DNA of 42,777 bases, taken from assembly GCA_017414525.1 (NCBI GenBank), contig JAFQLO010000008.1, forward strand, positions 1 through 42,777, read 5' to 3'. This DNA comes from Clostridia bacterium (GTDB taxonomy: Bacteria; Bacillota; Clostridia; Christensenellales; Borkfalkiaceae). Below, piece after piece: positions 9,804-31,410 of the stretch. A model generated the notes under the pieces. It made no database searches. It saw only the letters and a list, made by a program, of their open reading frames with translations, and was not told the DNA's origin. Within the stretch, counting starts at the first letter, position 1. Each line of letters opens with the position of its first letter. The translations under genes and the position numbers were made by a program.

Positions 9804-10727
9804 TTAATCTTCAAAGTCTTCAATTTTTCTTGGACCAGACTGTTCGTGTTTAGAATCTTTAAGCGGTTCAAGCTCGTGTTTTTTTGCCTTTGCCAAAGGA
9901 TTGATTGAATCCTTGTTGTTAAGCTTACGGTATTTGATTGGCGTAGTCCCGTATTTCTGCTTAAAAATCTTGTTTAGATAAGAGAGATTGTCAAGCCCTA
10001 CGAGATTGCAAATTTGTTGTAGAGAATAGTTTGTGTTCTCTAGATAGTAAGCCGCATGCGAAAGCCGAACGTCTTTCATGTAGTCGGAAATGGTAACGCC
10101 AACGTATCTCTTAAATAACCTAGAAATGTAAATGGGGGAATAGCCAAACCTAGAAATGAGAGTATTTACTTTTTTTCCAAGGTTTTCAGGGGTGGAAAGG
10201 CTTGCCAAAATCTTCTTTATCACGTCGGGATAAGAAGTGCCCTCGTCACTAGAAGTTAAGGAGTCGTGGAATTTTGACATAAACTTAGCAACTAGCTCTA
10301 ACGCGATGCACTGTTTTTTCTGAACGTTAGCTTGCTTAGAGAAGTCTGTTAAAATTCTCTCGAACTCCGTTACCTCGGTAATGGAAAGACGCACTTTCTT
10401 TTTGTGAAAATTTTCAGTAAGCAATTTTTCGTTCATAAACAGAAGTTGACAAATTCCTTCGAAGAAAGCTCTGTCTATAAGCACGTCGCGCTGAACGGAA
10501 TTTTTAATGGGTTTGAGTTCGTGGCGTGAGCCGATAGACATAAACCTCAAATCCCCCGCAGATAAAACTTCCGTCTGTTTTTGCGAGGTGTGAGAAACCG
10601 CGCCCGAAATCACGTAGAAGAACTCGTAGAAATCGTGCGAGTGGCTGTGCGCCGTGTTATTATACATTATTTGAGTTGAAATATGGGTGTCTTTCAAAAT
10701 GAAATCATGCCCTTGTAAAGTAATCAT
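9804..10727 (-). CDS. AraC/XylS-family transcriptional regulator (cupin sensor domain plus dual HTH)
   Basis: C-terminal AraC HTH (ISRLFKRYVGVTISDYMKDVRLSHAAYYLENTNYSLQQICNLVGLDNLSYLNKIFKQKYGTTP) and an N-terminal cupin-like His-rich segment (HSHSHDFYEFFYV). The start is ambiguous between ATG 10727 and GTG 10733. There is an unusual charged C-terminal tail of about 35 aa. Confidence 0.85.
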   Translation of the reverse strand: MITLQGHDFILKDTHISTQIMYNNTAHSHSHDFYEFFYVISGAVSHTSQKQTEVLSAGDLRFMSIGSRHELKPIKNSVQRDVLIDRAFFEGICQLLFMNEKLLTENFHKKKVRLSITEVTEFERILTDFSKQANVQKKQCIALELVAKFMSKFHDSLTSSDEGTSYPDVIKKILASLSTPENLGKKVNTLISRFGYSPIYISRLFKRYVGVTISDYMKDVRLSHAAYYLENTNYSLQQICNLVGLDNLSYLNKIFKQKYGTTPIKYRKLNNKDSINPLAKAKKHELEPLKDSKHEQSGPRKIEDFED

Positions 10728-10814
10728 CAGCACTATGATACCAGTTTGTGGAAAAAATTCAAGATGAAAATCGAAAGTGGTTTAAATAGCACAAAAATAA
10801 GTTAAAATAGACAA

Positions 10815-10843
10815 TTGAAATGACTGTATAAAAACTGTAAAAT
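10815..10843 (+). promoter_or_regulatory. Candidate sigma-A promoter for the ABC / giant-protein operon
   Basis: TTGAAA-17 nt-TAAAAT. This would give a leader of about 320 nt before the binding-protein start at 11164. Confidence 0.4.
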
Positions 10844-10867
10844 ATCTATGCTATAAGTGTCACTGTG

Positions 10868-10906
10868 GGGAAAATCTTCAATTTTCGAAAACGAGATTTT
10901 CGGCGG
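10868..10906 (+). promoter_or_regulatory. Nested palindrome in the operon leader / AraC divergent region
   Basis: GAAAATCT (10870-77) pairs with AGATTTTC (10894-901) around an inner TTTTCGAAAA palindrome. The flanking words GGGGAAAAT and TTTTCGGCGG resemble those of the 9546-9685 element. Confidence 0.35.
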
Positions 10907-10964
10907 TGGCGACGGATAAGCCATATATATGTAATATATATGTTCAAAGTTTAAAGGGGATTTT

Positions 10965-10985
10965 AAAGTCCAAATTTTGGACTTT
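10965..10985 (+). promoter_or_regulatory. Perfect 10-1-10 palindrome (candidate operator or leader hairpin)
   Basis: AAAGTCCAAA-T-TTTGGACTTT read directly from the sequence, followed by TTATAA. An AT-only palindrome, CATATATA-tgtaa-TATATATG, lies 23 bp upstream (10922-10942). Confidence 0.4.
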
Positions 10986-11163
10986 TATAAAGACCTCAGA
11001 CAAATGATTAAATCGCGAAATCTTCAGCGCGTTTAATATCGAGGTGCTATTAAAGCAGTTGTTTCAAAAGAGACTAAGATACGCCTACTTGTTATTTTTG
11101 ACCAAACTGCTCAAAATAAAACCTCAAAATAATAAAAAAATATTTTTAAGGAGTAACAAGAAA

Positions 11164-12972
11164 ATGAAGAAAAGACTTATTGCTATTGTTATGATGGTAG
11201 TGATGACAGTTGCATCAGCGTTTGCCTTTACTGGTTGTAAAGCCGAAGACAAGACTGATAGCAGCAACACCGTTTTGAACGTGCTTACTTTTAAAGCAGG
11301 TTACGGAACGACTTACTTAGACGCTATTAAACAAGCTTTCGAAGAAACGTTTAAGGCAGAAGGATATAAGATTAATATCTTGACGCCTAAGACCGACCTT
11401 CACGGTTCAATCGTTATTCAGGAAATCTATTCCGGAAGCACCGTTGACGTTTATATCCCTGGTAATATGAATGCCGAAGCAGCGGTTGCAGGTCAGTATA
11501 GCGATAAAGGCGATATTATTAGAGACGTAACCAATTCTGTTTTTAATAAGCCTGCAATTAAACTTGACGGAACGGAAGAGAGCCAAACTATCAAAGAAAA
11601 ACTTTCTTTCTTCTCTGAAGTTTCTGATAAGGTTATAAGTTATGACGGCAAATATTATGGAATTCCTATGACTATCGACGGTGCTGGTCTTGCTATTAAC
11701 CTCAACGTTTTAGAGGATGCAGGATATACTGAAGATGAAATCCCCGTAACTACTAACGAACTTTACGCTATCGCTGACAATATGATGGCAAACATCTCTC
11801 TCGGCGAAGCACCCTTTATCTTCTCTGCACAAGGTAACGGTTACTGCGCAGGCGTTGAACACACTTGGCTTGCTCAGTACGAAGGAATGGGCGGATATAA
11901 CGAGATTTTAGGTTTTGAAGACGCTGACGGCAATCGTTTGGATTGCGTTGTTCCTAACTGCGACGGCTCTAACTGTAACGGTCACGCTTATGACGTGTTT
12001 GAGAAAAACGGTCTTTTAGAAGTTATGGCTGCTTGCTTTGAAATGTACGATCCCTCAAAGCAGACTGTTGGTGGACCTCAAAAAGACTTTAAGGGTGTTC
12101 AGGCTGACTTCGTTCTCGGCAAAGCAGCATTCTACGGCGTATCTGCTTGGATGTACAACGAAGAATATCAAACCTATAACGAAGAAATTAAGGACGTAAC
12201 TTGGGTGCGTATCCCCGTTATCTCTGCATTAGGACCTAAGCTTGACCTCTGTAAGGCAGGTCACGTTGAAAAAACCGGCGAATGTTTCGCTACTTGCGAC
12301 GCTTGTGACGCACTTCTTTCTAAAATAGTTAAATTGACCGACGCTGGAAAGACTGCTGAAGAAATTCAAACGGAAGTTCCCGCAGCTAATATGGACGATA
12401 TCGAAAGAATTATGGAAAGCAGATACCTTGTTAAAGGTTCTGCTGGCGGAATGAGTGCTTGGATTAACGCAACCGTATCTGAAGAAAAGCAAGTTCTCGG
12501 TGAAAAGTTCTTGAGATTTATTGCAAGTGACGAAGTTGCATCTCTTATCTCTAAGCATACCAACACCGTTAACCCCTGCAACAGAAACGCTATCAGCGAC
12601 TCTAACCAGAAATGGTTGCAGAATTCATTCTCAATTTTTAACGACGAAAAAACTATTTTCTTTGAGTCTGGTGTAAGAGGATACAGACAGAAGATGGGTG
12701 TCGTTAACCTCGTTCCCCTTTACGGTAACGTTATGAGTTACGATTTCTATAACAAGCAAATTACTGCTTACGATAGAGGACAGGGCTACAAGAAGGTTGC
12801 TGACAGATCACTCTATACTGAGGCAGCAAAACTTGCTATGTACGGCGGAAAACTTACCCTTCCCGTTAGAGATAACGGCAAACTCGTAGAAGTAGACTTC
12901 GATATGGGTGCTTATAATCACGCTAAAAAGAACATTGAAACTGGCGGTTGGAAGATTCCCGAAAAAAAATAA
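11164..12972 (+). CDS. Large ABC-transporter extracellular solute-binding lipoprotein (CUT1 / LplA-like)
   Basis: The start was set to ATG 11164, after AAGGAG. Signal peptide with lipobox AFTG-C. At 602 aa the size and layout fit the oversized family-1 sugar-binding proteins that pair with LplB/LplC-type permeases. It carries two Cys-rich inserts. Confidence 0.75.
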   Translation: MKKRLIAIVMMVVMTVASAFAFTGCKAEDKTDSSNTVLNVLTFKAGYGTTYLDAIKQAFEETFKAEGYKINILTPKTDLHGSIVIQEIYSGSTVDVYIPGNMNAEAAVAGQYSDKGDIIRDVTNSVFNKPAIKLDGTEESQTIKEKLSFFSEVSDKVISYDGKYYGIPMTIDGAGLAINLNVLEDAGYTEDEIPVTTNELYAIADNMMANISLGEAPFIFSAQGNGYCAGVEHTWLAQYEGMGGYNEILGFEDADGNRLDCVVPNCDGSNCNGHAYDVFEKNGLLEVMAACFEMYDPSKQTVGGPQKDFKGVQADFVLGKAAFYGVSAWMYNEEYQTYNEEIKDVTWVRIPVISALGPKLDLCKAGHVEKTGECFATCDACDALLSKIVKLTDAGKTAEEIQTEVPAANMDDIERIMESRYLVKGSAGGMSAWINATVSEEKQVLGEKFLRFIASDEVASLISKHTNTVNPCNRNAISDSNQKWLQNSFSIFNDEKTIFFESGVRGYRQKMGVVNLVPLYGNVMSYDFYNKQITAYDRGQGYKKVADRSLYTEAAKLAMYGGKLTLPVRDNGKLVEVDFDMGAYNHAKKNIETGGWKIPEKK

Positions 12973-12990
12973 TTACTAACGAAAACCTTA

Positions 12991-13009
12991 CCGCCCGAAT
13001 TTCGGGCGG
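12991..13009 (+). other. Intercistronic GC-rich stem-loop after the binding-protein gene
   Basis: CCGCCCGAA-t-TTCGGGCGG with no U-tract. Hairpins like this typically raise the abundance of binding-protein mRNA relative to the permease genes. Confidence 0.5.
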
Positions 13010-13036
13010 TTGGGGATAAAAAATAAAGGTGAGAAA

Positions 13037-14056
13037 ATGGCAGATTTATCTAAACTTCAAGAAATTACTAGAAAAAGAAAGTGGTATGAGATAGGACATT
13101 ATTCTGCTGATGAGAAAAGATATTTCCCCGTAGTATATTTGCTCCTAATCATTCCAGTTCTTCATCTTATCGTATTTTATTTTTACGTTAACTTTTCGTC
13201 TTTTGCGCTCGCTTTCACCGATAGGTACGGCGACTTTACTTTGGGAAACTTCGAGGCTTTCTTAACAACCTTTTTCTCGGGTGGAGTTGACTCGCAAGGC
13301 GGTGGTAACCCTTCGTTATCTTTAAGAAACAGTTTGATTATTTACTGGATCGGATTTATTGTAGGTAACTCGGTCGGTTTGATAACCACTTATATGCTCA
13401 CTATGCATATCGCGGGAAGTAAATTCTTCCGTGTTTGCTTGCACGTTCCGGGTCTTATAGGCGGCGTCGTTTCCGTTTCAATTAACCAAGGTCTTTTGGC
13501 ATACGACGGACCTATTACTCAAGTAATATTTGCATTGTTCGGAAAAGATAACTTTAACTTTGCCGTTCAAGACGGAGGTTTGCTAGCGCACGAATCGACG
13601 GCGTTTTTAACACTTCTTATATGGAATCAGTGGGGCGCAATCGGTGGTGGCGGAATGGTTCTAGCCGGTGCGTTTAAGAGAATTCCACAAGAAGTATTTG
13701 AGGCTGCTAGCCTTGACGGCTGTGGATTCCTTCGTGAAACTTTCCAAATTGCAGTTCCCTGTGCTTGGCCTACCATTTCAACGAGTTTGATTTTCGGTTT
13801 CTGCGGAATGTTTACGGCTGACCTTAACTTCTATCTATATTCCGGAGGGCAGAACGCTCACGGAATGACGAGTATGGGTTCGTATCTATATAGGTATCAA
13901 GCACTTATTGCAGGTGCGATAGACGCGGGCGGTAACTACGATTGGTTGTACGGCTACGTTTCTGCGGCTGGTATGATTATAACCGCGATAACCGTTCCCT
14001 GTGCGTTCTTGGGAAGATACGTTCTTTCTAAGTTCATTGAAGACGTAAGCTTTTAA
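13037..14056 (+). CDS. ABC sugar transporter permease (MalF/LplB-like)
   Basis: The start was set to ATG 13037. Six or more hydrophobic helices and an EAA loop (EAASLDGCGFLRETFQIAVPCAWP). Confidence 0.85.
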   Translation: MADLSKLQEITRKRKWYEIGHYSADEKRYFPVVYLLLIIPVLHLIVFYFYVNFSSFALAFTDRYGDFTLGNFEAFLTTFFSGGVDSQGGGNPSLSLRNSLIIYWIGFIVGNSVGLITTYMLTMHIAGSKFFRVCLHVPGLIGGVVSVSINQGLLAYDGPITQVIFALFGKDNFNFAVQDGGLLAHESTAFLTLLIWNQWGAIGGGGMVLAGAFKRIPQEVFEAASLDGCGFLRETFQIAVPCAWPTISTSLIFGFCGMFTADLNFYLYSGGQNAHGMTSMGSYLYRYQALIAGAIDAGGNYDWLYGYVSAAGMIITAITVPCAFLGRYVLSKFIEDVSF

Positions 14057-14068
14057 GGAGGTGCTGAG

Positions 14069-14989: not shown

Positions 14990-15000
14990 TAAACAAACCT

Positions 15001-15027
15001 TTCCAAGGCGGAAAACCCGCCTTGGAA
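15001..15027 (+). other. Intercistronic stem-loop between permease and giant lipoprotein gene
   Basis: TTCCAAGGCGG-aaaac-CCGCCTTGGAA: an 11-bp stem with only a weak T-tract. Confidence 0.5.
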
Positions 15028-15052
15028 GAACTCTTTTAACTAGGAGGTTTTT

Positions 15053-18000
15053 ATGAAAAAAACTAGAAAGATTTTAATTTTCGTTCTCTCCGTTATGTTT
15101 GCAATAAGCGCGTTTAGTTTCGTCGCTTGTGCACAGAAAAAAGAGGAAATGAAAATTACTACCGTTCCTCCCATCGTTCAACATTGTGTGGGGGAAAGTA
15201 TTAACCTTTACGACTATATAATCAGAGAGGCTGGTGCTACTTATACCTTCTCCGTTTCTTATAACGGTGGGGAAGCGAAAGCTCTTAATGCTAACGGTTA
15301 TTATCTCGCTGAAACTGGCGATTATACTTTTACCGTTAACGGCTCTTCCGCTACGAAAGAGGGTAGTGCAACGTTCTCACTCTCAGTCGTAGAAGTTGCA
15401 CCTACTATTTGGTATAAGACTGCTGAAATTCCTGCTTACTGGCTTGAATATACCATATTATATAAGTTGTTAGACGAAGCTGGTCCTTACACTATGCCTG
15501 TTGGCGGTGTTACCACCGAGCTTACGCACGTTTTCGTTTATCCCGCAGAGGACGATACCATAGGTTATAAAGTTGACCTTACCGGTACTCAGTCTTACGT
15601 TGAGAAGTTCAATAAAGAAACTCCCGACGATTTAACCAAGATTGAACTTACCGACGATAACATTGACGAACTTGGTTTCTACGTTAACAGAAAGAAACGT
15701 GTTGACGACACTTCTCCTATTAAGGCGGATGACGGAAAATACTACGGCGTTAAAGATATGCAGGGTATTTTTATGTACCTCATAGAAGGTCAATACGAAT
15801 TCCATTACAGATCTTATAACACTGGTGGTGAACAAAAGGCTAAGTTCTACGTTAAGTGTACTGAAAAACTTTTCGAACTCACCGAACTCGAAGGGGCACT
15901 CCAGTTCGATAGAGATACCGAAGTGGCTAGTTGGGCTCCCATTGAGGGCGCAGTTCAATATAAGGTTAAACTCCTTAATAAGAACTTCTTTACTACTGAC
16001 ACTTTCTTCGATTGTTCACAGTTAATCACTAATCCTATTATGGATTATACCATAGTCGTTCTTCCTATCGGTGAAAATCCCGAAAAGGCAAACGATTATC
16101 TCAACAACTGCAAGATGACCTATGAAACTCCTTACATAGGTAGTGAAGGCGCTGTTCAGAACGCTGATAAGTCTATCACCATTAAGGGTAACAACCCCGT
16201 TGGCGGTGACCTTTACGGACATATGGCTGCTGTTGAAAACGAATACTACGCTCTCCGTGGTAACTACGGAATCGGTAACTACATTGACGTTAAGTTTAAG
16301 GGCAACAATATGCCTACTATCGTTCTATTTGCCGACGCTATTAACAAGTCTGTTACTTGGCACGGTGGTAGAGGTATCGTAGTTATGAACGGTCTCGTTT
16401 CTTATACTGAAGGTGGCGATCTCGTTAAAAGTTACTTGGATAGAACGTATGTTTTCGGACCTAACAGAGTAAACACTCACTTTACTCATAAGCCACTTGC
16501 AGCTCTTTCGGGTAATAACACCAACCTTACCCAAAATTATTTAAAGAGCAACTCAAACACCACGTTTACTTATACCGTTGGTACTCGTATTGACTCGAGC
16601 GAGATGATTCTTCTCTCGTCAACGCTTAAAAACGCTGATACTGGCGAGGTTATTTCTACTCAAGAATATCCGCTCCACTATCAATACGATGCGTCTAAGT
16701 CAATCAAAGACATAAGTCCTACCAGATATTTGACTACTGACGACGTTAACCCTGGTAGCTTCATTCTTTTCGGCGCGTATAAAGAGAACGGTGAAGACAC
16801 TACTATCCTTTCAGTAAGCGATCCTTATTACGTTGATCCTCGTTCAACCGTGGAAAACGAAGACGGTTCGTTCACCGTAACTTCTTCTAGAGTAGTAGGT
16901 ACTGATTGGAACGCTCTTAAAACTTCTAACAGTAAGTTTGGTTACGTTCTCCAAGAAGGCAAGTTCGGTGTAAACACTTACGCTGAATACGTTTTCAAGG
17001 GCAACAATATGCCTCAAATTCTTCTCTTCGCTGATAAGATTGACGGCAACTTCACGGGTAATGGTGGCGGTAAGGGTATCCTTATCTCTAACGGTATGGT
17101 AAGTTATACCGTTGATAAGGACGGAAATTACGTTGCTACTAACGACACTGCTAGTCTTAAGATTTACGGACCTAACAGAATCGCTGGTAAGCCCGCATTC
17201 GTTAAAGAGGACAGTGCGTTCTCACAAGATAATTTAAGCAAATCTTCTTCTGCCGAATACAGAATGGTTGTAGGTACGAAGGTTGTTTATGAAGACGTTA
17301 ACACTTACACTCCCGTTAAGAAGTCTTACATCGGTAAAGACGGATTTATGGAAGAAGTAGTTTACGTCGTTCTCGAACTCTATAACAACAAGACTGGACG
17401 TTTAATCGAAAAGATTGAAACTCCCGTTCAGTCAAATGAAAACAATTACGATAAACTCGCTAGAAATAAGTTCGTTACCACTCAGGATATAACTGCTGGT
17501 AGCATCGTTGCATTCGCTGGTATTAAGGGCGTTGACGCAACTGGTAAGGCTCTTACCACTACTTTCTTCTGCTCAAAAGCACCTGAAACGATTGCGCCTT
17601 CTACCTCTGGTCACGTTCACGACTTTACTAACTACAACAACGACGGAACTTATCACTGGTTCGAATGTACTTGTGGTGCTAAATGCACGAAGGGTACTTG
17701 CGTAGGCGGAACTGCAACTTGTAGCGAACTCGCAGTTTGTGACGTTTGTGGCAAGGGTCACGGCGAATTGCTCCCACACGTAGGTGGAACTGCAACTTGT
17801 ACTGAAAAGGCAGTTTGTACCGCTTGTGGTCAGTCTTACGGATACTTCGGTCACGTATTTAACGCTGAAACGGCTAACGTTCAGTCTAACGACGATTACC
17901 ACTGGTTCACTTGTGATAAGTGTGGCGTTGTAACCGAGCAGATGGTTCACGTTGGTGGCGAAGCAACTTACGAAGACAGGGCAGAGTGTGAAATTTGTGG

Positions 18001-22319: not shown

Positions 22320-23918
22320 ATGAAAAAACGTTTTACAAAAATATTAACATTAGCGATGTCTTCAATAATGGCGGTTGGCACACTCTTCGGATGTGCCACC
22401 GAGCAAACGGGAAGAATAGTTAGTGCAACTCTTCCCGAGGGATATTTCTTCCCAGAATATACCATTGAGCAGTCGGGCAAAACTTACGAAACGTTTGCTT
22501 ACGGCGCGTCAAGAAACCCGTATTTAACGTTTGACGGTGAACAAAGAGAGTTCGTTGATACTACTTCTGTTGAGTATATGCAAACTTATAAGGACGCAGG
22601 ATTCACCGTTTACTTCTCGACATTCTCGGAAAGTGCTGATATAATGAGCGTTCTTGATAACGCAGAAAAGGTTGGCTTGAAAGTTCTAGTAACTGACTTC
22701 TGGATTCTTGATGCGGTAGGCACTGACGGAAAACTCGTTGACGAGAACAACGACGGAACTAAGAGCAGAGATTATAGAACGAAAGAAGAATTGCAAGAAG
22801 CCGTTAGAGTGCAGATTGAAGAGTGGTGTTCACACCCTGCATTCTTTGGACTTAACATGCGTGACGAGCCGATAATTGACTTCCATGAAGACTACGGCGA
22901 CTTGTATAAAGCAATTCGTGCGATTGAACCCACGCTCAAAAAAGCAGACGGAACGTTCTATAAACCTGGTGAACTTTATCTCCACGTTAATATGTTGCCT
23001 CTCGGCATCAACGTTGGAACGAGTTACTATAAGGAATACGAAACACTTGGCGAAGCGTATGATAAATACGTAAGAAATATGTTCGAAGTTTCTGGCGCTG
23101 ACAGACTTTCAGTGGATATTTACGAATTCAGAAGAGACGGCGTGTTCCCTGGCTTCTTCCCGACCATGCAGATGTTCGCAAACGCTTGTAGGGACTATAA
23201 AGCAGGATTCACTTACGTTCAGCAATCGTTCAACACTTTCTCTGGAACAACCGAATCTTACGGCAGAGTAACGAGAGCGGAAATGATGAGTGAAACTTAC
23301 ACTGCAATCGGCTTAGGTGCAACCCACCTTTCGTACTATACTTACACACCGTATGCAGAACAATCAGTAGCAGGTACGCACACCATTCACCACTTCTTGG
23401 ATTTTGAGGGCAAACCCACCAACGTTTATTACTACGGTCAGGCTGCAATGAAAGAAGCAAGATTCTTGGCTGATTACGTGTTTAACTTTGATTATCAAGG
23501 TTGTAACTTCGTAACCAACCCCGATCCCGACTCAATGACGTTTGGTATCGGTGCATATCTCACTAGCCGTGGTGATAGCGTAACTGGTACTAGTGCTCAG
23601 TTTGACAGAACTTACGAGTTCGAAAAGATTAAGAACGAGGACATCGTTATCGATAACGATATACTTTTGGTCAGCGAACTCAAAGATTCAAAGAACGATT
23701 TGTATATGTACATGTTCCAGAACGTATTGAACCCCTCTGACGAGAAGATCGGTAGGGTAGACGTAAACGTAAGCGTTGACTTCGGAACGGAATACGACTG
23801 GGTAGCAGAAATCGGTGGCGGAATGGTTAACTACGTTAAACTTGATAAAGGCGTATACACCGCATCACTCGGTGCAGGCTATGCAAACTTCGTAGTACCC
23901 CTAGCAAAAGCAAACTAA
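22320..23918 (+). CDS. Surface lipoprotein, uncharacterised enzyme-like family (paralogue of 28628..30013 and 30034..31410)
   Basis: Signal peptide with lipobox LFG-C. It shares ordered motifs with the two downstream paralogues: AGF(T/N)V, FFGLNMRDEP vs FYG(I/V)QLYDEP, LHVNMLPLGIN vs LQCNLLPYCGID, VDIYEFRRD vs (V/F)DEYFFR(R/K)D, QQSF vs (L/I)QSF, and LSYYTYT vs (I/A)(G/A)FFTYMT. The alternating beta-alpha style pattern suggests a TIM-barrel hydrolase, but this is unproven. Confidence 0.6.
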   Translation: MKKRFTKILTLAMSSIMAVGTLFGCATEQTGRIVSATLPEGYFFPEYTIEQSGKTYETFAYGASRNPYLTFDGEQREFVDTTSVEYMQTYKDAGFTVYFSTFSESADIMSVLDNAEKVGLKVLVTDFWILDAVGTDGKLVDENNDGTKSRDYRTKEELQEAVRVQIEEWCSHPAFFGLNMRDEPIIDFHEDYGDLYKAIRAIEPTLKKADGTFYKPGELYLHVNMLPLGINVGTSYYKEYETLGEAYDKYVRNMFEVSGADRLSVDIYEFRRDGVFPGFFPTMQMFANACRDYKAGFTYVQQSFNTFSGTTESYGRVTRAEMMSETYTAIGLGATHLSYYTYTPYAEQSVAGTHTIHHFLDFEGKPTNVYYYGQAAMKEARFLADYVFNFDYQGCNFVTNPDPDSMTFGIGAYLTSRGDSVTGTSAQFDRTYEFEKIKNEDIVIDNDILLVSELKDSKNDLYMYMFQNVLNPSDEKIGRVDVNVSVDFGTEYDWVAEIGGGMVNYVKLDKGVYTASLGAGYANFVVPLAKAN

Positions 23919-24083: not shown

Positions 24084-24215
24084 ATGAGAAAAATTTACGA
24101 ACAGGCAGAGATGGAGATTCTTTATTTTGAATCTTCAGACGTAATGGACGTATCTGCGCCGACTGGTTCTAACTTTGACGGCACGATAGAGGACTGTTAC
24201 GGAGACCAGTTGTAA
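24084..24215 (+). CDS. Small acidic protein (43 aa), unknown function
   Basis: AAAGGAG lies 7 nt upstream of ATG 24084. Product: MRKIYEQAEMEILYFESSDVMDVSAPTGSNFDGTIEDCYGDQL. Its TAA stop overlaps the GGAGG of the next gene. The longer 24006 start has no ribosome-binding site. Confidence 0.5.
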   Translation: MRKIYEQAEMEILYFESSDVMDVSAPTGSNFDGTIEDCYGDQL

Positions 24216-24231: not shown

Positions 24232-27200
24232 ATGAATAAGACTATTAAAACAAAATTGATTTCACTTTTTGCTGTTCTTCTTTCAATATGTATGCTTTTC
24301 AGTGTGGCTAGCATGGTAACGACAACGGCAAAAGCAGAAGGCACGACCACCGCAGCAACTTTGGTTGAAGGTGCAGCTGTTAGAGTTAATAGTGCTGAAT
24401 CTTCAGGTTTGAAGTTTAAGGCTTCAATCGATAAGGCTCAGTACAACGCTCTTTATAACCAAGCTGGTGGCAAACTTAAAGCAGGTATGATCATCGTTCC
24501 GACTGATTATATCACCGCTGCAAACGGTTACACGTTTAACGCATTTGCTGCTGCTGGCAAAACGGTAGCATCAAACACCATCGCAGAGTTTAAGAATGCA
24601 AGCGAAAGCACTTACGAGTTCACGATGAGTATTATTAATCTCAAACTCGCTAACTACGACAGAGATTTTGAAGCAATCGTTTACTTGGAGAGTGAAGTTG
24701 CTCTTGACGGTTTCGTTGCTTACGGCGACAAGTATTATGCTTACGCTGAAAGAAATGAATCTTACGCAAGAAACATTTATGAAGTTGCTAAAGGCGTTTA
24801 TAACGACAGAGCAGACGCTCAAGACGACGTTAAGTACATCTATCCTGTTGACGGCAAGTACGCAACTTTGGATACTGACGGCTTAGCAATCGCTAAAACC
24901 TTTATCGACGGCGTAACTGAAATTGTTCTTGATAACGGTAAACCCGCTGCATATTCAAGTGAATACTACGCAGCAAAGGACAGCGTTTTAACTAACGACA
25001 CTGAGGCTTATCTCTTGGGCGAACACAAAAACGTTGTTTATAAGGGCGAAAGCATTTCTTCTTATCCCTTCACCGCTGACGGTATAGCTATTAAACAGAT
25101 GTATACCGCTAGAGCAACCTATGCTAACGGTGAGTATACTACCGCTGGTTATGCAATTGGTGCTCTTCTTTGGTCAGCGGGTAATGCTGGTAATGGAACT
25201 TATGGCTACGTAGCATTTGACGGAGAATATGGTCCTAGCACTTACGTTGAATTTACTTTCACTGGTAATAATATGCCTAACGTTATTCTCTATGCAGATG
25301 ACGTAACTGATGGTAATATGACTCACAATTCAGGTGGTAAGGGTATTGCCATGATCAACGGTATATCTTATGACGGTACAGCTTCTACTGGTAGAACTAC
25401 TGACTTAGAAGTTTGGGCACCATATAGATGGAATGGACACTACGTAGGATACAATTCATATAGATATTACGGTGATTCAAAAGTTCCTATGATGAAATAT
25501 TTTATCAACAATCCTACGACTGAATTCAGATACGTTGTTGGTACTTATATCGTTAAGGAAGACGTTCATAACGCTTCTGGCGTTGTTTATGGCGCGGAAG
25601 AGGAGAAGGACGGCGTATTAGAAGAAGTTATCTATCTTGATATGGCTATTTATAATAATAGCACTGGAGCGTCTTTATATACTCTTAAAACTCCCCTTTG
25701 GGCTAAAAACACCACCTCTTCTACTGCAACAACAGATCGTGTAACTACAGAAGATTTGTCAAGTGGCGCAATTATGGCGTTCTCAGCTTTGAAGGGTGCT
25801 GATGCGACTACTGGTGACGTTCTTAACACCACCTTTAAGGTAACCAAAGCTCCTTATCACGTTCATAATTTCAATTCTGAAATTAAGAGCGATGCAACTC
25901 ACCACTGGTATGAATGTGCTTGTGGCGAAGTTGGCGAAAAGGCTGAACACTTGGGCGGAACTGCAACTCACACCGAAAAGGCAAAATGTGAAGTTTGTGG
26001 AACTGCTTACGGCGACCTCAAACCCGCTTGGGAAGTAGACGACGTAGCACTCGTTCAAATGACTAACCAGTCTGCTGCACAGGTTATCACTGCTGATAAA
26101 GGTACTATTACCTTTACTGGTTCACAAGAAACTCCTTCACAGACTAACGCATCTTCTATCGTTCTTAAGAAACAGTATACTACTGAATTCGTTAGGGTAG
26201 GATTCACTGCACTTGCAGATTATGTAAGAGAAGGCACTGTAACCAACTTGAACTCCGTTCTCGGACTCAACGTTGAATATAGAACTTCAAGCGAAACTAG
26301 TAAGAGTGGTGTTGACAGTTGGGGCTTTGATATTATGAATACCACCAACTACTTCCGTTTGTATCCTGTTCATAGCGGACACTACGGTGGATATGCTTCA
26401 GATAGAACAGTTGCTAAGGCATTCGTTGCTGGCGAACAGTATTACTTAATTGCTGGTATCGATAGCAATAACACCTTATATTTCTATATTCTTGATGAAG
26501 ACAACACCGTTATGGCTAAGTCTACTATGGACGAAGCAGCGTTAATTGCAGCTGGAACTCATGCAACTAATAAAACTCTTGATTATTCAATGCCTGAATC
26601 AGGTTACTGGACTATCAACAGCTGGGCAACCTCAGAGAGAACCCTTTCTTGGGAAACCATTTCTGAAACTCAAGCAATGTACTACATTAACGGCGGAAAG
26701 GGTGTTGAAGGTCTTGCTGTTAGCGGCAACACCGCAAGCTGGACTGCTTATAACGGCGCAACCTCTTATAAGGTAAAAGTTGATAACGGCGAATGGACTG
26801 ACGTTGGTAACGTAACCTCTTACGCTATTGCTAACCTCGCCGCATTTGACACTTATAGCGTAACTGTTAAGGCTGTATGCTCAGGCTTTGAAACTAAAGA
26901 AACCGCAACTCAATTTACTTACGTTCCTAGTGGAATTACCCTTGCTAACGTTGATAGTATTAAGGCTGATGGAAACGCAACTGCAACTAGTGGAAAGGTA
27001 ACTGTAACGGCTGATACTGCATCTGCAATCGGTTTTGCTGCAGACGCTACCGACTTTATTAAAGTTAAATTTGCCGCAACTGGCGCTGCTGTTGAAGCAA
27101 TGTCAATAAACTTCCGTCAAGCAAGCGTTGCTGCAAACTGGCAGAGTGGTTGGGGTATAGTACCTAACGGAACGCACGGAATGATGCTTAATTACGGCGG

Positions 27201-28425
27201 TAATAACTATATGAACCGTATCAATAGTTACGGCTTATATACTAGCGTTATCGGTGGAAACGGTATAGAAGCAAAGAGTGACTTTACCGAAGGCAACGAG
27301 TATGCTTATATGTTTGGTATTACTGGAACTGGTACTGATAAAGTATTGCACTTTATGATTATCGACGAAACAAATGCAGTAGTTATGAGATATGTAACTT
27401 GGACTTGGGCTCAGATATCTGAGTATAGAGACACTGCCTTCTCTGGCTGGACCCTCGTTGATATTGCTGAAAGTGGTTCGTTTGTATTCAACTTTACTGG
27501 TGCTGTAAACGATATGACTATTTCTTATGAAATCATCGAAGCTGCTGACGTATTTAAGAACGCTAACTACGGCGCAATCGCTAACGTAGCTGCTAACGGT
27601 GCAACCGTTTCTTGGGATGCTGTTGCTAACGCAACTAACTATTTAGTAAGCGTAAACGGCGGCGCTTATGAAACTGTTAACACCAACTCTTATACTATTG
27701 CTAACCCCGTATCTTTCGCTAACTACGAAGTTGAAATTAAGGCAAATATGGGTTACTACGCAGCAACTGGTTCTTTGAACTTTGTTTATACTCCCGCTGG
27801 CGTTAAATTGGTTAATATAGATACCATAGCTGCTAACGGTGCTGTTTCTGCTACTAGTGGTAGCGTAACGTTTGCTGATAAAGGAACTGGTACTCAAAAT
27901 TCTTCAACGATTGCCGTTAAAGCAGAAAATGCAACAGATTTCTTAAAAGTTAAGTTTACCGCTCTTTCAACTCCTGTTCGTGGTGGCTTACAGGCTGCTA
28001 CCGCACTTTGGTTTGGTCTTAGAAGAACTGAGGCTCAGATCACGATAAACGGAAACGAAGCAAACTCTTGGAACGCTGGTCCTAGAACAGACACAAACGA
28101 CTTCTGTGCATATTATGGTAGTAATGTTAGTTACTTCCATGCGACTGGAAACACCAAAGAAATGCCGACTTGGTACTGGAATGGTGGTATTACCGAAGGT
28201 GACACTTGCTACTATTTGATCGGTGTAACTTCTGAAGGCGAGATTAAGCTCGTGCTCGTTAACGAAACCACGAATAAGCTTCTTTGCAGAGGTACTGTTG
28301 GTGCAGATAACGCAACCAATCTTGCTGCTGATGGTTACTTCACTATCCACAGCTTCTCTAACGCAGAAAGAACTCTTTCTTGGGAGATCGTTTCTGAAGC
28401 ATCAGTTGCTGATTATCTCGGCTAA
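24232..28425 (+). CDS. Large (1397 aa from ATG 24232) secreted modular protein sharing A, knuckle and B modules with the giant lipoprotein, plus two FN3-like inserts
   Basis: Type-I signal peptide (…TTAKA-EG). Modules: one A (GNNMPNVILYAD, nt 25264), one knuckle unit (nt 25855-26020: HHWYECACG...GGTATHTEKAKCEVCGTAYG), and B-like modules at about 26035-26670, 26929-27540 and 27796-28422. FN3-like segments lie at 26704-26928 and 27580-27795 (…ASWTAYNGATSYKVKV…, …VSWDAVANATNYLVSV…). Confidence 0.9.
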   Translation: MNKTIKTKLISLFAVLLSICMLFSVASMVTTTAKAEGTTTAATLVEGAAVRVNSAESSGLKFKASIDKAQYNALYNQAGGKLKAGMIIVPTDYITAANGYTFNAFAAAGKTVASNTIAEFKNASESTYEFTMSIINLKLANYDRDFEAIVYLESEVALDGFVAYGDKYYAYAERNESYARNIYEVAKGVYNDRADAQDDVKYIYPVDGKYATLDTDGLAIAKTFIDGVTEIVLDNGKPAAYSSEYYAAKDSVLTNDTEAYLLGEHKNVVYKGESISSYPFTADGIAIKQMYTARATYANGEYTTAGYAIGALLWSAGNAGNGTYGYVAFDGEYGPSTYVEFTFTGNNMPNVILYADDVTDGNMTHNSGGKGIAMINGISYDGTASTGRTTDLEVWAPYRWNGHYVGYNSYRYYGDSKVPMMKYFINNPTTEFRYVVGTYIVKEDVHNASGVVYGAEEEKDGVLEEVIYLDMAIYNNSTGASLYTLKTPLWAKNTTSSTATTDRVTTEDLSSGAIMAFSALKGADATTGDVLNTTFKVTKAPYHVHNFNSEIKSDATHHWYECACGEVGEKAEHLGGTATHTEKAKCEVCGTAYGDLKPAWEVDDVALVQMTNQSAAQVITADKGTITFTGSQETPSQTNASSIVLKKQYTTEFVRVGFTALADYVREGTVTNLNSVLGLNVEYRTSSETSKSGVDSWGFDIMNTTNYFRLYPVHSGHYGGYASDRTVAKAFVAGEQYYLIAGIDSNNTLYFYILDEDNTVMAKSTMDEAALIAAGTHATNKTLDYSMPESGYWTINSWATSERTLSWETISETQAMYYINGGKGVEGLAVSGNTASWTAYNGATSYKVKVDNGEWTDVGNVTSYAIANLAAFDTYSVTVKAVCSGFETKETATQFTYVPSGITLANVDSIKADGNATATSGKVTVTADTASAIGFAADATDFIKVKFAATGAAVEAMSINFRQASVAANWQSGWGIVPNGTHGMMLNYGGNNYMNRINSYGLYTSVIGGNGIEAKSDFTEGNEYAYMFGITGTGTDKVLHFMIIDETNAVVMRYVTWTWAQISEYRDTAFSGWTLVDIAESGSFVFNFTGAVNDMTISYEIIEAADVFKNANYGAIANVAANGATVSWDAVANATNYLVSVNGGAYETVNTNSYTIANPVSFANYEVEIKANMGYYAATGSLNFVYTPAGVKLVNIDTIAANGAVSATSGSVTFADKGTGTQNSSTIAVKAENATDFLKVKFTALSTPVRGGLQAATALWFGLRRTEAQITINGNEANSWNAGPRTDTNDFCAYYGSNVSYFHATGNTKEMPTWYWNGGITEGDTCYYLIGVTSEGEIKLVLVNETTNKLLCRGTVGADNATNLAADGYFTIHSFSNAERTLSWEIVSEASVADYLG

Positions 28426-28467
28426 TCTTTAGATTTCTAATCTAACAGATTAAAACTTAAAACATTA

Positions 28468-28496
28468 AAGGCAATTCTTCGGAATTGCCTTTTTGT
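28468..28496 (+). terminator. Rho-independent terminator
   Basis: AAGGCAATTC-ttcg-GAATTGCCTTtttg. Confidence 0.8.
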
Positions 28497-28565
28497 TACT
28501 TTAAATTAAAAAGTTAAATAATTAAAAAAAGTAAAAATAAAACAAAAACAAGTTATTATTGCACA

Positions 28566-28594
28566 TTGACATTAACAATCGTCAGTGTTAAACT
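28566..28594 (+). promoter_or_regulatory. Candidate sigma-A promoter for the tandem paralogue pair
   Basis: TTGACA-17 nt-TAAACT, located 34 nt upstream of the ATG at 28628. Confidence 0.5.
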
Positions 28595-28627
28595 ATTGAT
28601 AATGATATTATTGTGAGGACTTTGGTT

Positions 28628-30013
28628 ATGAACGATAAGTTTATGGTTTACGGCTACAACTCGCCCACGGACGGCAAGTTTTATATTAACGATTTTGAAT
28701 ATTCTTACGGCGAAGATTACCGCTCGGTTAAGCGTTATAAAGAGTATACTAACGCGGGCTTTAACGTATTACTTCTTCAGCACAAGAACGAATACCACGG
28801 CGAAGAGTGGGAGACCTGTTCTACCAAAAAGTGTATGGAAGAGGCTTATAAGGCGGGTATTGATAAAATCGTTTTGGGTGATACTCGCTTAAAGGATATG
28901 TGCATTGACGAAAACCTTTTGGGGGAGAACGGTACTTATAAGACGGAGGCTGAACTCTTAAAGGCTATTGAAGACTGCACTAAGCCTTACCGCGATATGC
29001 CTGGTTTTTACGGTATTCAACTTTACGACGAACCCAGATGGACTAAATTACATAGTTATGCGCTCGTCGGTAAGGGGCTCAAAAAACTTTATCCGAATAT
29101 TTATTTACAATGCAATCTTTTGCCTTACTGCGGTATTGACCTTATCGCTGCGGAAACTACCGACGATTACTCGGGTTATAAAAAGTATCTTGACGACTGG
29201 CTAACGATGACGAACCTTGGCAATCTCACTTTTGACGAATATTTCTTCCGTAAAGATTATTTGCAGGGTTCAGAAGGCGGTTCGTTTATGACTTATATGC
29301 TCGCTGCAGAGGCGTGCAAAAAGCACAATGCGGTTATGGGGGCAACGCTTCAGTCTTTTGCGTGTATGTCGCACGCGGGGCTTCATCACCGTCACGTCAC
29401 CGAGCCTGATATGTATTTCCAGTGCAATATGGCTATGGGTTTTGGTGCGAGAGAAATTGCTTTCTTCACCTATATGACAAAAATCAAGTTTACTTTACAT
29501 AAAGAAAGCAAAGGGGCAAACGACTCTCTTGACGGCGGTGCGTGGATTAATCACGACGGTTCTAGAACTAGACTTTATTACTTTGGTAAAAAAGTTTTAG
29601 CCGAGATGCAAAACTTTGCGCCCACGCTCTTTAAGTATAAATATAACAACTACTGGATGAGTTTCCCCAAGGGCGTTAAGCATACTGACGTAATTGACAC
29701 TCGCCGTATCGTTGAACCTCATTATATCGACGAGTCTTGTGATATTAAAGTTAAAAACTCAACTGGCGTAGTGATGGTTACCGAGCAAATCAAGGTTGAC
29801 GGCTCTAAAGGGCGTTTGTTTATGGTTGAGAACGTTACCAATCTTAAATATCAGCTTGAGGGTGAAGTTCAGAGAGTTACCATCGATCTTGGCGCGCTCG
29901 CTGACGGTGCTAAGTTCTATTATAGAGGTAAGGAAGTTAAGAAGAACGTTAAAAACGGCGTTTTAAGACTAGTGCTTAAAAACGGCGACGCGCTCTTTAT
30001 TGAAACTAAATAA
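28628..30013 (+). CDS. Cytoplasmic paralogue 1 of the uncharacterised enzyme-like family (461 aa)
   Basis: The start was set to ATG 28628 (MNDKFMVYGY, matching the MKDQFMVYGY start of the neighbour; GAGGA lies 8 nt upstream). No signal peptide. Motifs YGIQLYDEPRW, LQCNLLPYCGID and QSFACMSHAGLHHRHVTEPDMYFQ. Confidence 0.75.
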   Translation: MNDKFMVYGYNSPTDGKFYINDFEYSYGEDYRSVKRYKEYTNAGFNVLLLQHKNEYHGEEWETCSTKKCMEEAYKAGIDKIVLGDTRLKDMCIDENLLGENGTYKTEAELLKAIEDCTKPYRDMPGFYGIQLYDEPRWTKLHSYALVGKGLKKLYPNIYLQCNLLPYCGIDLIAAETTDDYSGYKKYLDDWLTMTNLGNLTFDEYFFRKDYLQGSEGGSFMTYMLAAEACKKHNAVMGATLQSFACMSHAGLHHRHVTEPDMYFQCNMAMGFGAREIAFFTYMTKIKFTLHKESKGANDSLDGGAWINHDGSRTRLYYFGKKVLAEMQNFAPTLFKYKYNNYWMSFPKGVKHTDVIDTRRIVEPHYIDESCDIKVKNSTGVVMVTEQIKVDGSKGRLFMVENVTNLKYQLEGEVQRVTIDLGALADGAKFYYRGKEVKKNVKNGVLRLVLKNGDALFIETK

Positions 30014-30033
30014 ACTGGATTATCGAGGCTATT

Positions 30034-31410
30034 ATGAAAGATCAATTTATGGTTTACGGATATTGTTCTCCAACGAATGGTGTGTTCAACATCAACGGCT
30101 GTAATTACAGTTACGGCGAAGATTTTCGCTCGGTTAAACGTTATAAAGAACACAAGAACGCAGGTTTTAACGTGCTTTTGTTGCAGGGCGGTAACGGTTA
30201 TCACGGTGGTGACTGGGAAACTAGCGGCGGTAAAATTTGTATGGAGGCAGGCTACAAGGCAGGTTACGACAAAATTATTATTGACGACGGTAGGCTTAAA
30301 GCAATGTGTGTGGACGATGAACTTATCGGTGGCACATATAAAGACGAAGACGAACTTTTAAGAGTCATTGAAGAGTACACTAAACCTTACCGCGATATGC
30401 CTGGGTTTTACGGCGTTCAACTTTACGATGAACCTAGATGGGCAAAATTAAAAAGTTACGCGGCAGTTGTTAGAGCACTCAAAAAACTTTATCCTAATAT
30501 TTATTTACAATGCAACCTTTTGCCTTACTGTGGTATTGACCTTATCGCTGCGGAAACTACCGACGATTACGACGGCTATAAAAAATATCTCGACGAGTGG
30601 TTGACAACCTCGGGATCTGGAAACGTTACCGTTGACGAATATTTCTTCCGCCGTGATTATCTTATGGGAAGCGAAGGTGCTGCGTTCAACACGTTCATTA
30701 TTGCGGCAGAGGCGTGCAAAAAACATAACGCCACTTTAGGCTTGGTTATTCAGTCTTTTGCGTGTATGTCGCACGCGGGGCTTCATCATCGCCACGTCAC
30801 CGAGCCCGATATGTATTTTCAAACTAACCTTGCTATGGGTTTTGGTGCTAGGGAGATAGGGTTCTTTACTTATATGACTAAAACCTCGTTCATCTTGAAC
30901 GCGCAAAGCAGTATTGCAAACGATTCTGTTGACGGCGGTGCGTGGATTAATCATGACGGCTCTAGAACTAGACTTTATTACTTTGGCAAAAAAGTATTAA
31001 AAGAGATGCAAAACTTTGCGCCTACGCTCTTTAAGTATAAATATAACAACTGCTGGTTCTCATTTCCAAAGGGCGTTAAGCATACGGACGTGCTTGATAC
31101 TCGCCGTATCGTTAACCCTAATTATATGGACGAAACTTGCCCGATAAAGGTTAAAAACTCAACTGGCGTCGTTATCGTTACTGAGCAGGTCGCAAAAGAG
31201 GGTAGTGGTAAAATTTTTATGGTTGAGAACGTTACCAACCTTAAATATCAACTTGAGGGCAAAGTTCAGAGAGTTACCATCGATCTCGGCGCGCTCGCTG
31301 ACGGTGCGAAGTTCTATTATAGAGGCAAGGAAGTTAAGAAGAACGTTAAAAACGGCGTTTTAAGACTAGTGATTAAAAACGGCGACGCGCTCTTTATTGA
31401 AACTAAATAG
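30034..31410 (+). CDS. Cytoplasmic paralogue 2 of the uncharacterised enzyme-like family (458 aa)
   Basis: Collinear with the 28628..30013 product along its whole length. High identity by eye, with near-identical central and C-terminal blocks. Confidence 0.75.
   Translation: MKDQFMVYGYCSPTNGVFNINGCNYSYGEDFRSVKRYKEHKNAGFNVLLLQGGNGYHGGDWETSGGKICMEAGYKAGYDKIIIDDGRLKAMCVDDELIGGTYKDEDELLRVIEEYTKPYRDMPGFYGVQLYDEPRWAKLKSYAAVVRALKKLYPNIYLQCNLLPYCGIDLIAAETTDDYDGYKKYLDEWLTTSGSGNVTVDEYFFRRDYLMGSEGAAFNTFIIAAEACKKHNATLGLVIQSFACMSHAGLHHRHVTEPDMYFQTNLAMGFGAREIGFFTYMTKTSFILNAQSSIANDSVDGGAWINHDGSRTRLYYFGKKVLKEMQNFAPTLFKYKYNNCWFSFPKGVKHTDVLDTRRIVNPNYMDETCPIKVKNSTGVVIVTEQVAKEGSGKIFMVENVTNLKYQLEGKVQRVTIDLGALADGAKFYYRGKEVKKNVKNGVLRLVIKNGDALFIETK

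Follow-up and report, generated by a model that had tools for sequence, protein, structure and literature searches.

A probable Gram-positive polysaccharide-utilisation locus built round an unclassified glycoside hydrolase-like family in a gut Clostridium

Contig JAFQLO010000008.1 (assembly GCA_017414525.1) comes from a Clostridia bacterium of the Borkfalkiaceae, and a stretch of 42,777 nt of it, hereafter the window, was analysed. Between positions 9,804 and 31,410 the window carries a gene cluster in which a divergent AraC-family regulator is followed by the genes of a sugar importer, two giant modular proteins (G1 and G2), a 43-aa open reading frame (ORF) and three members of a protein family here called Par. 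We consider it likely that this region is a Gram-positive polysaccharide-utilisation locus (gpPUL) built round Par, an unclassified family resembling glycoside hydrolases (GH), in an uncultured, Christensenellales-like gut Clostridium. A locus of this type had been suggested in a preliminary description of the region, and the suggestion is supported by the fold of Par, by the fusion to Par of a module found in both giant proteins, and by a gene order that recurs in related genomes.

In gut Firmicutes (Roseburia/Eubacterium rectale), a gpPUL comprises a regulator, a carbohydrate transport system and at least one polysaccharide-degrading enzyme (PMC5320581). The region possesses a regulator, the AraC/cupin protein encoded at 9804-10733, and a transporter, made up of a lipoprotein substrate-binding protein (SBP) and two MalFG/CUT1-type permeases. 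As to the enzyme, the GH78 and GH106 proteins encoded upstream are exo-rhamnosidases without signal peptides, and the extracellular candidate is the lipoprotein ParL with its GH-like fold; the region corresponds to a gpPUL provided that the Par proteins count among the enzymes that degrade polysaccharides. It further shares with gpPULs the clustering of an AraC-type regulator, an ABC (ATP-binding cassette) carbohydrate importer and degradative enzymes, the division of these enzymes between the extracellular space (signal peptide or lipoprotein) and the cytoplasm, and the capture of glycan by appended β-sandwich modules rather than by SusC/D. It differs in that its core enzymes, binding modules and conserved 43-aa partner belong to no recognised Pfam family (a CAZy number for Par being possible), and in that the binding modules are carried on separate giants of 2415 and 1397 aa and not on the enzyme. 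The architecture is known in kind, and it is the content that is uncatalogued: a GH-like family of large size whose catalytic signature is atypical, a Par-linked module of lectin fold, lineage-specific B modules with zinc-ribbon-like linkers, and a conserved micro-ORF.

Fold, signature and extent of the Par family

The three Par proteins of the window had been noticed as an unrecognised enzyme-like family with one member outside the cell and two inside, and this has stood: the family combines a TIM barrel with a β-sandwich, has GHs as its structural neighbours and falls into no curated family. ParC1 and ParC2 are 78% identical, and their tandem arrangement is a local duplication. ParL is 26% identical to ParC2 over 439 residues (E = 8e-29), which places their paralogy far above chance, and it keeps the D-E-P and D.Y motifs as well as the remaining invariants of the family. 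None of the three has a Pfam, NCBIfam or PDB sequence match, and direct assignment gave no significant match in the same databases, whether the query was a single sequence or one of three successively broader profiles. In a word-indexed search of 5.8 billion proteins, ParC2 retrieved 47 clusters and ParL 13, all of them unnamed or 'hypothetical' and devoid of a precomputed Pfam domain; NCBI and JGI label all Par members 'hypothetical protein', none of the relatives has had its structure solved, and literature searches turned up no prior description of the family.

The family is nonetheless large. When 1.84 billion cluster representatives were searched exhaustively with a profile, 4045 Par clusters (at 50% identity) were recovered at E <= 1e-3; the stricter limits of 1e-10 and 1e-30 left 2390 and 388. 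A scan of GTDB species genomes yielded 38 Par loci (these and further related contigs are referred to below by L numbers), all from metagenome-assembled genomes (MAGs) and nearly all labelled as Christensenellales, Christensenellaceae, 'Candidatus Scatosoma' or uncultured Clostridia of the animal or human gut; the exceptions in labelling are L007, named only 'bacterium', and L038, named uncultured Acidiphilium sp. Several MAGs contributed two loci each, and Par is therefore multi-copy within a genome.

The AlphaFold2 (AF2) model of ParC2, built from 35 sequences, has a mean pLDDT (predicted local distance difference test) of 92.5 and a pTM (predicted template modelling score) of 0.91, and shows a (β/α)8 barrel at about residues 1-330 followed by a β-sandwich at 335-458. 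Compared with the PDB by Foldseek, the model gave 275 matches at E <= 1e-3, with E values down to 1.9e-9, and the best 50 of the 275 were all glycoside hydrolases with barrel and sandwich, drawn from GH66, GH13, GH30, GH157, GH29, GH35, GH140, GH5 and GH79. When the three window paralogues were aligned with 145 representatives (about 148 members in all), the conserved residues were D85, D132-E133-P134, N161, Y185, D201, Y203, Q240 (about 90%), Y280, E384 and N399. On the model these lie after strands β3, β4, β5, β6, β7 and β8, with E384 and N399 in the sandwich.

Sequence comparisons below significance point in the same direction. A Pfam scan of 90 diverse members at E <= 1 most frequently returned DUF4434 (four members, 0.0078), GH42 (three members, best 1.7e-4) and GH35, while broad Par profiles searched against PDB sequences gave sub-significant matches to GH35 (8uid, 8qqh), a GH5 mannanase (3ziz) and GH26 (4zxo), besides noise matches to proteins that are not enzymes. 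In these weak alignments the Par segment 'FYGvqLrDEP' falls on 'IGIQVENEY' of GH35 and 'ELANEP' of GH5, the acid/base motif of clan GH-A, and the 'D.Y' of β6 falls on 'DVY' of GH26. As in members of this clan (GH35, GH42, GH5, GH26, GH30, GH140), the TIM barrel of Par is followed by a β-sandwich at the C-terminus; after β4 comes the Glu of an x-E-P motif, which falls on the NEP acid/base in the alignments, β6 bears a D/H-x-Y motif and β8 is rich in aromatic residues. The (β/α)8 barrel of the clan is thus present in the ParC2 model, and so is the Glu after β4, since D132-E133-P134 follows strand 125-129, with Asp replacing Asn. From this converging weak evidence (sub-threshold matches with E of 0.02-1 and structural similarity at a template modelling score, TM, of ~0.5) we conclude that Par is a very divergent barrel of the clan GH-A type with a C-terminal β-sandwich, and E133 of the invariant D132-E133-P134 is predicted to be the acid/base.

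The giant proteins and the conserved small ORF

The 2415-aa lipoprotein, the 43-aa ORF and the 1397-aa secreted protein built of the same modules are all present as first described. G1 consists of a lipoprotein signal, an N-terminus resembling immunoglobulin (Ig) or fn3 domains (residues 27-360), two A modules (365-594 and 597-845), five B modules and eight Cys-rich linkers, one to three of which stand ahead of each B module. In G2 the signal peptide is followed by an N-terminal domain beginning 'GAAVR...GLKF' and then by A, linker, B, fn3, B, fn3 and B, which amounts to one A, one linker, three B and two fn3-like domains. Orthologues of 2115 aa (G1, in L046) and 1048 aa (G2, in L039/L046) were found. 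The module copies are 23-57% identical to one another, and the duplications are therefore old. The possibility that A and B are diverged copies of one module was rejected (hhalign probability 0.1%).

Neither A nor B has a sequence match in Pfam, NCBIfam or the PDB, also when profiles of the two modules are used. The only family match in G1 and G2 was a borderline fn3 in G2 (9.9e-6), and profile scans for known carbohydrate-binding modules (CBM), S-layer homology (SLH) domains, dockerins and LPXTG signals gave nothing recognisable, in agreement with the preliminary description. Residues 298-818 of G2, which span A, linker and B, gave an AF2 model of moderate confidence that is all-β. Its Foldseek neighbours include DUF1080 'putative glycosyl hydrolases', among them the two-domain BT3469 over the whole model (E 2.4e-7), and further the L-type lectin ERGIC-53, calreticulin, galectins, CBM66, GH16 glucanases and the Aap lectin domain. 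The model supports a concanavalin A (ConA)-like fold of lectin/CBM type for A and B, which would make them putative carbohydrate-binding modules. As in other ConA-like modules (DUF1080, CBM66, ERGIC-53), a β-sandwich jelly-roll of about 220-250 residues is predicted, in tandem and near carbohydrate-active enzymes. A and B differ from these in having no sequence similarity to DUF1080, CBM66 or L-type lectins, nor to each other; A has an invariant signature of its own (GNNMP...FAD...GG.G..NG), and the B modules are separated by Cys4/His linkers of zinc-ribbon-like type.

The strongest functional link of the A modules to Par is genetic. The A module, and not B, is conserved in proteins of 720-1330 aa that adjoin Par genes in the MAG loci, and A-A-Par fusions occur in L013. 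Fusion architectures with Par are found in many proteins of 900-2500 aa, and the consensus of 24 long Par members (740-2484 aa) is an N-terminal 'GA..R...G.RF' domain, A, A and Par; the other domains of the fused proteins are Big_2 Ig-like only, with a dockerin in one.

Apart from the window, only its closest relative was found to have B modules and linkers. A search of JGI metagenome contigs with a four-sequence alignment (325 pattern matches) gave no relative of B, and a word-indexed protein search with A-linker-B returned seven proteins, none with a B module. As far as these sequence searches go, B modules and Cys-rich linkers are restricted to this lineage. The linker, of about 55 aa, follows the pattern H-x-F...C-x(1,2)-C-G...H-x-G-G-x-A-T...C-x-x-C-G-x-x-Y-G and resembles a zinc ribbon. 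By itself the repeat was also observed in a few other surface proteins: 10-12 copies account for the greater part of P0049 and P0050, and in P0054 it occurs with SLH domains.

The 43-aa ORF has no Pfam or NCBIfam match. Nine homologous ORFs of 39-50 aa were found (ten with that of the window) in L003, L012, L018, L027, L039, L041 (two), L043 and L045, and they share the pattern M-[RK]-K-x-Y...F-x(2,3)-[DE]-D-[VI]-[VIM]-x-[TA]-S...[DE]-D-x-[YFW]. In every case the next gene, which encodes a large secreted protein, starts no more than about 15 nt from the end of the small ORF or overlaps it by at least 4 nt. This protein has a type-I signal peptide and the 'GA.[VI]R...G.RF' N-terminal domain; one of the nine homologues precedes a Listeria-Bacteroides-repeat protein. 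Judged from this conservation in sequence and position, the small ORF is a real gene and a conserved partner of secreted proteins of the G2 type. It could serve to couple translation, act as a regulator or take part in secretion.

Gene neighbourhood, transport and transcription

All ORFs of the 38 MAG loci were compared with the window proteins by BLAST and clustered, and recurrent neighbours were scanned against Pfam. The preliminary description had hinted at a rhamnose-containing glycan from the upstream genes of the window, and the hint is strengthened by loci beyond it. A gene like the (α/α)6 rhamnosidases of GH78 is present in 27 of the 38 loci and, in 24, has as its immediate same-strand neighbour a gene from the cluster that holds the Par enzymes and A-module proteins. 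This company extends to the most distant loci (L036-L038), in which Par is only 23-26% identical to ParC2. GH106 occurs in four of the 38, with homologues of 38% identity lying between Par genes in L012, L019 and L026. Other recurrent neighbours are GH36, GH4, a GH63/MGH1-like protein, GH125, AraC regulators and the same LplABC-like importer, to which five more contigs with precomputed Pfam domains add GH127, GH1, an AXE1-like esterase and GDSL esterases.

The preliminary description had asked whether the genes are co-conserved in relatives, and they are, with an order that recurs in many MAGs. On the five additional contigs it runs from an A-module lipoprotein through extracellular Par, a 41-46-aa ORF, a secreted G2-like protein, cytoplasmic Par and GH78-like/GH36 to a further cytoplasmic Par; the order importer, A-module lipoprotein, ParL, small ORF, G2-like protein and ParC is kept in L022, L024, L030, L032 and L041-L046. 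The closest relative, a Logan contig from run SRR27608094 with proteins 44-86% identical to those of the window, retains the entire order together with the downstream flank: SBP (587 aa), permease (339), permease (305), G1 (2115), ParL (537), small ORF (42), G2 (1048), ParC (458) and the phosphohexomutase gene PGM.

Owing to the near-obligate pairing of Par with GH78-like genes, the substrate probably carries alpha-L-rhamnose. The window GH78 has as its best PDB relative the 'putative rhamnosidase' 3w5m (E 1.9e-123), and the GH106 ORF opens with TTG at 6030, its likely start being the ATG at 6054. The nearest solved relatives of the two enzymes do not discriminate between substrates. As both enzymes are without signal peptides, they are predicted to be cytoplasmic, together with ParC1 and ParC2. 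No polysaccharide lyase (PL), GH28 or GH105 was found in any locus examined, which argues against classical degradation of a pectin backbone, and the mixed neighbours (acting on alpha-Gal, beta-L-Araf and alpha-Man, and esterases) suggest that different Par paralogues serve different glycans. A second conserved context of cytoplasmic Par genes was observed, in which a giant Par fusion, GH36, a GH63/MGH1-like protein, GH4, Par, a short GH78-like protein (about 475 aa) and GH125 are encoded (L013 3854-9142; L015; L018 8294-14560; L025); being rich in alpha-glycosidases, it suggests a glycan other than that of the window locus. Proteins with a beta-lactamase fold and PGA_cap (CapA-like) proteins also recur downstream of tandem ParC genes in several MAGs (L009 12880-15471; L006; L008; L045 12590-14071).

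ORF listing and translation recovered every gene of the preliminary description with the size and orientation given there, although the number of co-oriented genes, put at twelve, is nine, or ten if the separately transcribed PGM gene is counted. In order from the divergent AraC gene, these plus-strand genes encode the SBP, two permeases, G1, ParL, the 43-aa ORF, G2, ParC1 and ParC2. The importer had been reported to consist of a 602-aa SBP and two CUT1 permeases without an ATPase gene, and this was borne out: no Walker-A or LSGGQ motif occurs in the six frames of the whole 42.8-kb window, which therefore has no ABC ATPase gene. The SBP matches SBP_bac_8 (3.3e-7) and the carbohydrate-SBP model TIGR03850 (1.8e-20) and has homologues in L021, L022, L024, L030, L032, L033, L035 and L046, the last of which also has a 339-aa orthologue of permease 1. 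CUT1-type systems of Firmicutes commonly share an ATPase encoded elsewhere, and an importer operon without one is ordinary. Like LplABC/CUT1 importers served by an orphan ATPase (MsmX/MsmK type), the operon combines a large lipoprotein SBP with MalF-like and MalG-like permeases and lacks an ATPase gene; the difference is that its SBP is unusually long and matches curated SBP models weakly. Divergent AraC genes were found in 11 of the 38 related loci.

Terminators and promoters were called by consensus scans of the sequence. The 430-bp control region holds promoter-like sites at 10815-10843 (+), 10781-10808 (+) and 10762-10735 (-). An Rfam search of the window found no riboswitch or other RNA element in this leader or elsewhere, and a repeat search of the leader found only short repeats at chance level. 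The stem-loop ahead of G1 may be a partial terminator or an element of mRNA stability, and the terminator- and promoter-like sites between G2 and ParC1 (28467-28492 and 28566-28594) suggest at least two transcription units in the locus. Because a strong terminator follows ParC2 and PGM has its own promoter-like site, the locus ends where the preliminary description had placed its end. The label 'accessory' that it had been given is not shown, as GC content is even over the whole window and the contig of the closest relative keeps the whole locus and its downstream flank. A mobile or horizontally acquired island is likewise unsupported, with uniform GC content and no integrase or transposase gene within the window.

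Two further features lie outside the locus. A gene resembling the large subunit of [FeFe]-hydrogenase, with ferredoxin domains, stands next to a LysR regulator (1097-2527 (-) and 2540-3463 (-)), which fits a strictly anaerobic fermenter as host, and at 35951-38237 (+) a DUF1538 membrane protein is followed by an overlapping protein with a P-II domain, a conserved-looking pair, presumably serving transport or regulation, unrelated to the glycan locus.

Table 1. Coordinates of the features of the locus and its surroundings, and of the small-ORF homologues in related loci (RBS, ribosome-binding site; HMM, hidden Markov model)
Feature	Position (nt)	Strand	Remarks
GH78 alpha-L-rhamnosidase	3799..6042	+	Pfam Bac_rhamnosid6H 1.2e-81, with N, concanavalin-like and C domains; no signal peptide
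GH106-like alpha-L-rhamnosidase	6054..8585	+	Glyco_hydro_106 3.3e-8, 33 bits against a cut-off of 29; no signal peptide
AraC-family regulator with cupin sensor domain	9804..10733	-	Divergent; Pfam HTH_18 3.9e-19, HTH_AraC, AraC_binding, Cupin_2
Control region	10734..11163		430 bp, divergent; promoter-like sites on either strand
SBP lipoprotein, 602 aa, of CUT1/LplA-like oligosaccharide ABC importer	11164..12972	+	ATG 11164, RBS AAGGAG, lipobox AFTGC
ABC permease 1 (MalF/LplB-like), 339 aa	13037..14056	+	BPD_transp_1 8.6e-5; MalF model 1.7e-7
ABC permease 2 (MalG/LplC-like), 306 aa	14069..14989	+	BPD_transp_1 4.1e-19; MalG model 1.2e-21
GC-rich stem-loop, 12-bp	15000..15028	+	Between transporter genes and G1
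G1, 2415-aa surface lipoprotein	15053..22300	+	Lipobox FVAC; module map by self-BLAST and HMM
Linkers in G1	about 17612-21604	+	aa 854-990, 1220-1277, 1510-1567, 1785-1898, 2128-2184
ParL, 532-aa lipoprotein, extracellular Par member	22320..23918	+	Lipobox LFGC
43-aa ORF	24084..24215	+	Own RBS AAAGGAG; directly upstream of G2
G2, 1397-aa secreted protein	24232..28425	+	Type-I signal peptide ending AKA/EG
Linker in G2	about 25867-26034	+	aa 546-601
Intrinsic-terminator-like hairpin	28467..28492	+	3' of G2; promoter-like site 28566-28594 next, ahead of ParC1
ParC1, 461-aa cytoplasmic Par member	28628..30013	+	ATG 28628, RBS GAGGA; no signal peptide
ParC2, 458-aa cytoplasmic Par member	30034..31410	+	No signal peptide; protein modelled by AF2
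Strong intrinsic terminator	31438..31470	+	3' of ParC2, closes locus
PGM/PMM (phosphohexomutase) gene, 500 aa	31557-33059	+	Own promoter-like site 31496-31524
Small-ORF homologue, L039	6522-6650		
Small-ORF homologue, L003	1419-1547		
Small-ORF homologue, L018	670-789		
Small-ORF homologue, L027	11675-11827		
Small-ORF homologue, L012	20869-21021		
Small-ORF homologues, L041	3477-3611, 19759-19893		
Small-ORF homologue, L043	4018-4158		
Small-ORF homologue, L045	5171-5296		

Proposed pathway, alternatives and significance

The location signals of the proteins suggest how such a locus might work: the SBP, G1 and ParL each have a lipobox, G2 has a type-I signal peptide, and ParC1, ParC2, GH78 and GH106 have no signal. 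At the cell surface or close to it, G1, as a lipoprotein, and G2, as a secreted protein, would capture a complex glycan by means of eleven predicted ConA-like modules (three A, eight B). ParL, by its location signal and GH-like fold, would cut the glycan outside the cell. The resulting oligosaccharide fragments would be imported by the SBP and the two permeases, presumably with energy from a shared ATPase whose gene lies elsewhere. ParC1 and ParC2, which lack signal peptides and are linked to the upstream GH78 and GH106 genes, may complete the breakdown in the cytoplasm together with these two enzymes, and the divergent AraC/cupin protein may switch the system on upon sensing a product.

Several points weigh against a polysaccharide-utilisation locus centred on Par as a glycoside hydrolase. 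None of the Par members scanned reaches the curated threshold of a GH family in Pfam or NCBIfam, and the structural neighbours of ParC2 are distant (TM <= 0.52, identity <= 11%), so that Par differs from clan GH-A in overall similarity and in the lack of a significant sequence or profile match. The link to the clan rests on mutually agreeing sub-threshold matches (E 0.02-1) and on structure matches with a TM of about 0.5. Par further differs in having Asp for the Asn of NEP, the invariant E384 and N399 in the β-sandwich, and Gln/Ser in place of the Glu nucleophile of β7: strand 234-239 is followed by Q240-S241, and the position is non-acidic in all 20 diverse members displayed, being Gln in 18 of them. 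As the β7 Glu is absent (Gln240-Ser241), the chemistry of Par is non-canonical, and that of a canonical hydrolase is not to be assumed. On the side of the giant proteins, the G2 model has a pLDDT of 72 from a shallow 15-row alignment, SPRY domains are also among its matches and the ConA-like fold occurs in proteins that do not bind glycans, and G2 shows no recognisable wall anchor. The window holds no rhamnose, uronate or amino-sugar catabolic genes that would pin the substrate. Finally, Par is called unclassified here on the strength of Pfam, NCBIfam and the PDB, and it may have received a recent CAZy number.

The altered active site invites a different account within the same locus architecture, namely that Par is an enzyme of the N-acetylhexosaminidase type working by substrate-assisted catalysis. 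D132 would polarise the 2-acetamido group of the substrate, E133 would act as acid/base, the enzyme could do without a nucleophile of its own, and the target would be a microbial glycan of rhamnose and N-acetylhexosamine (Gram-positive rhamnan-type wall polysaccharides, O-antigens) and not plant pectin or gum. An adjacent D-E (or D-x-E, D-D) pair without a nucleophile is the hallmark of GH20, GH18, GH84 and GH123, which use substrate assistance on 2-acetamido sugars. Par recalls it with an invariant Asp-Glu pair at β4, where clan GH-A has Asn-Glu, and with Gln/Ser in place of the β7 Glu. The absence of pectin-type enzymes (PL, GH28, GH105) from the loci examined agrees with a microbial target, and the sole carbohydrate enzyme from outside clan GH-A among the PDB profile matches is the β-N-acetylgalactosaminidase 8k2j, at noise level (E 1.2). 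However, GH20, GH18, GH84 and GH123 are missing from the top 50 Foldseek matches, no genes of the nagA/nagB type lie nearby, D201 (β6) or D85 (β3) could provide an alternative nucleophile or base, and GH127, GH36 and AXE1-like esterase neighbours better suit plant glycans. We therefore regard this account as unlikely, if the most serious of the alternatives.

It is considerably less probable that G1 and G2 are adhesins or structural proteins of the envelope, without a role in glycan catabolism and only incidentally placed in the locus. Such a role would sit well with the lack of a recognised CBM, SLH, dockerin or sortase signal in the two proteins, with the confinement of B modules and zinc-ribbon-like linkers to this lineage, and with a ConA-like fold that is not sugar-specific; yet A modules are fused to a Par domain in one polypeptide in other genomes, and in many MAGs the A-module proteins hold a fixed place between a permease gene and ParL.

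Least probable of all is that Par is a sugar-acting TIM-barrel protein other than a hydrolase, be it an esterase, an epimerase or a phosphorylase whose cytoplasmic copies hand sugar-1-phosphate to PGM/PMM, since the missing canonical nucleophile and the PGM gene directly after the last Par gene in the window, L040 and L046 are countered by the strong terminator and promoter-like site between ParC2 and PGM, by the absence of PGM from the 38 more distant loci, by the extracellular location of ParL and the fused giant forms, where phosphorolysis is implausible, and by structural neighbours that are all hydrolases. The coupling of a phosphorylase to PGM was accordingly downgraded, PGM being separately transcribed by its terminator and promoter signs and linked to Par in close relatives only.

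Returning to the gpPUL built round a GH-like Par family, a more specific joint proposal can be advanced tentatively, and we would place it somewhat below an even chance. In it, Par founds a new GH family that is GH-A-like, has lost the β7 nucleophile, carries an Asp-Glu dyad, works by substrate assistance or with a relocated nucleophile, and acts with GH78 and GH106 on a rhamnose glycan to which CAZy-based annotation of Christensenellales is at present blind; module A would be a new CBM family, and the 39-50-aa ORF an undescribed, translationally coupled partner, with a regulatory or secretory role, of a class of giant secreted proteins.

Christensenellales are widespread, health-associated gut bacteria, of which few have been cultured, so that little is established about the carbohydrates they live on. 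Standard annotation misses about 5,300 codons of the locus, yet these belong to a conserved system that is present in multiple copies, at several loci per MAG, and counts more than 4,000 sequence clusters. The conserved small ORF raises the separate question of how giant secreted proteins are made or controlled. If Par is indeed a new GH family partnered with rhamnosidases, constructs of ParL, ParC, module A and the SBP would open a direct way to a new specificity, perhaps also to a mechanism outside the canon, and profiles based on CAZy would underestimate the glycan-degrading capacity of these organisms.

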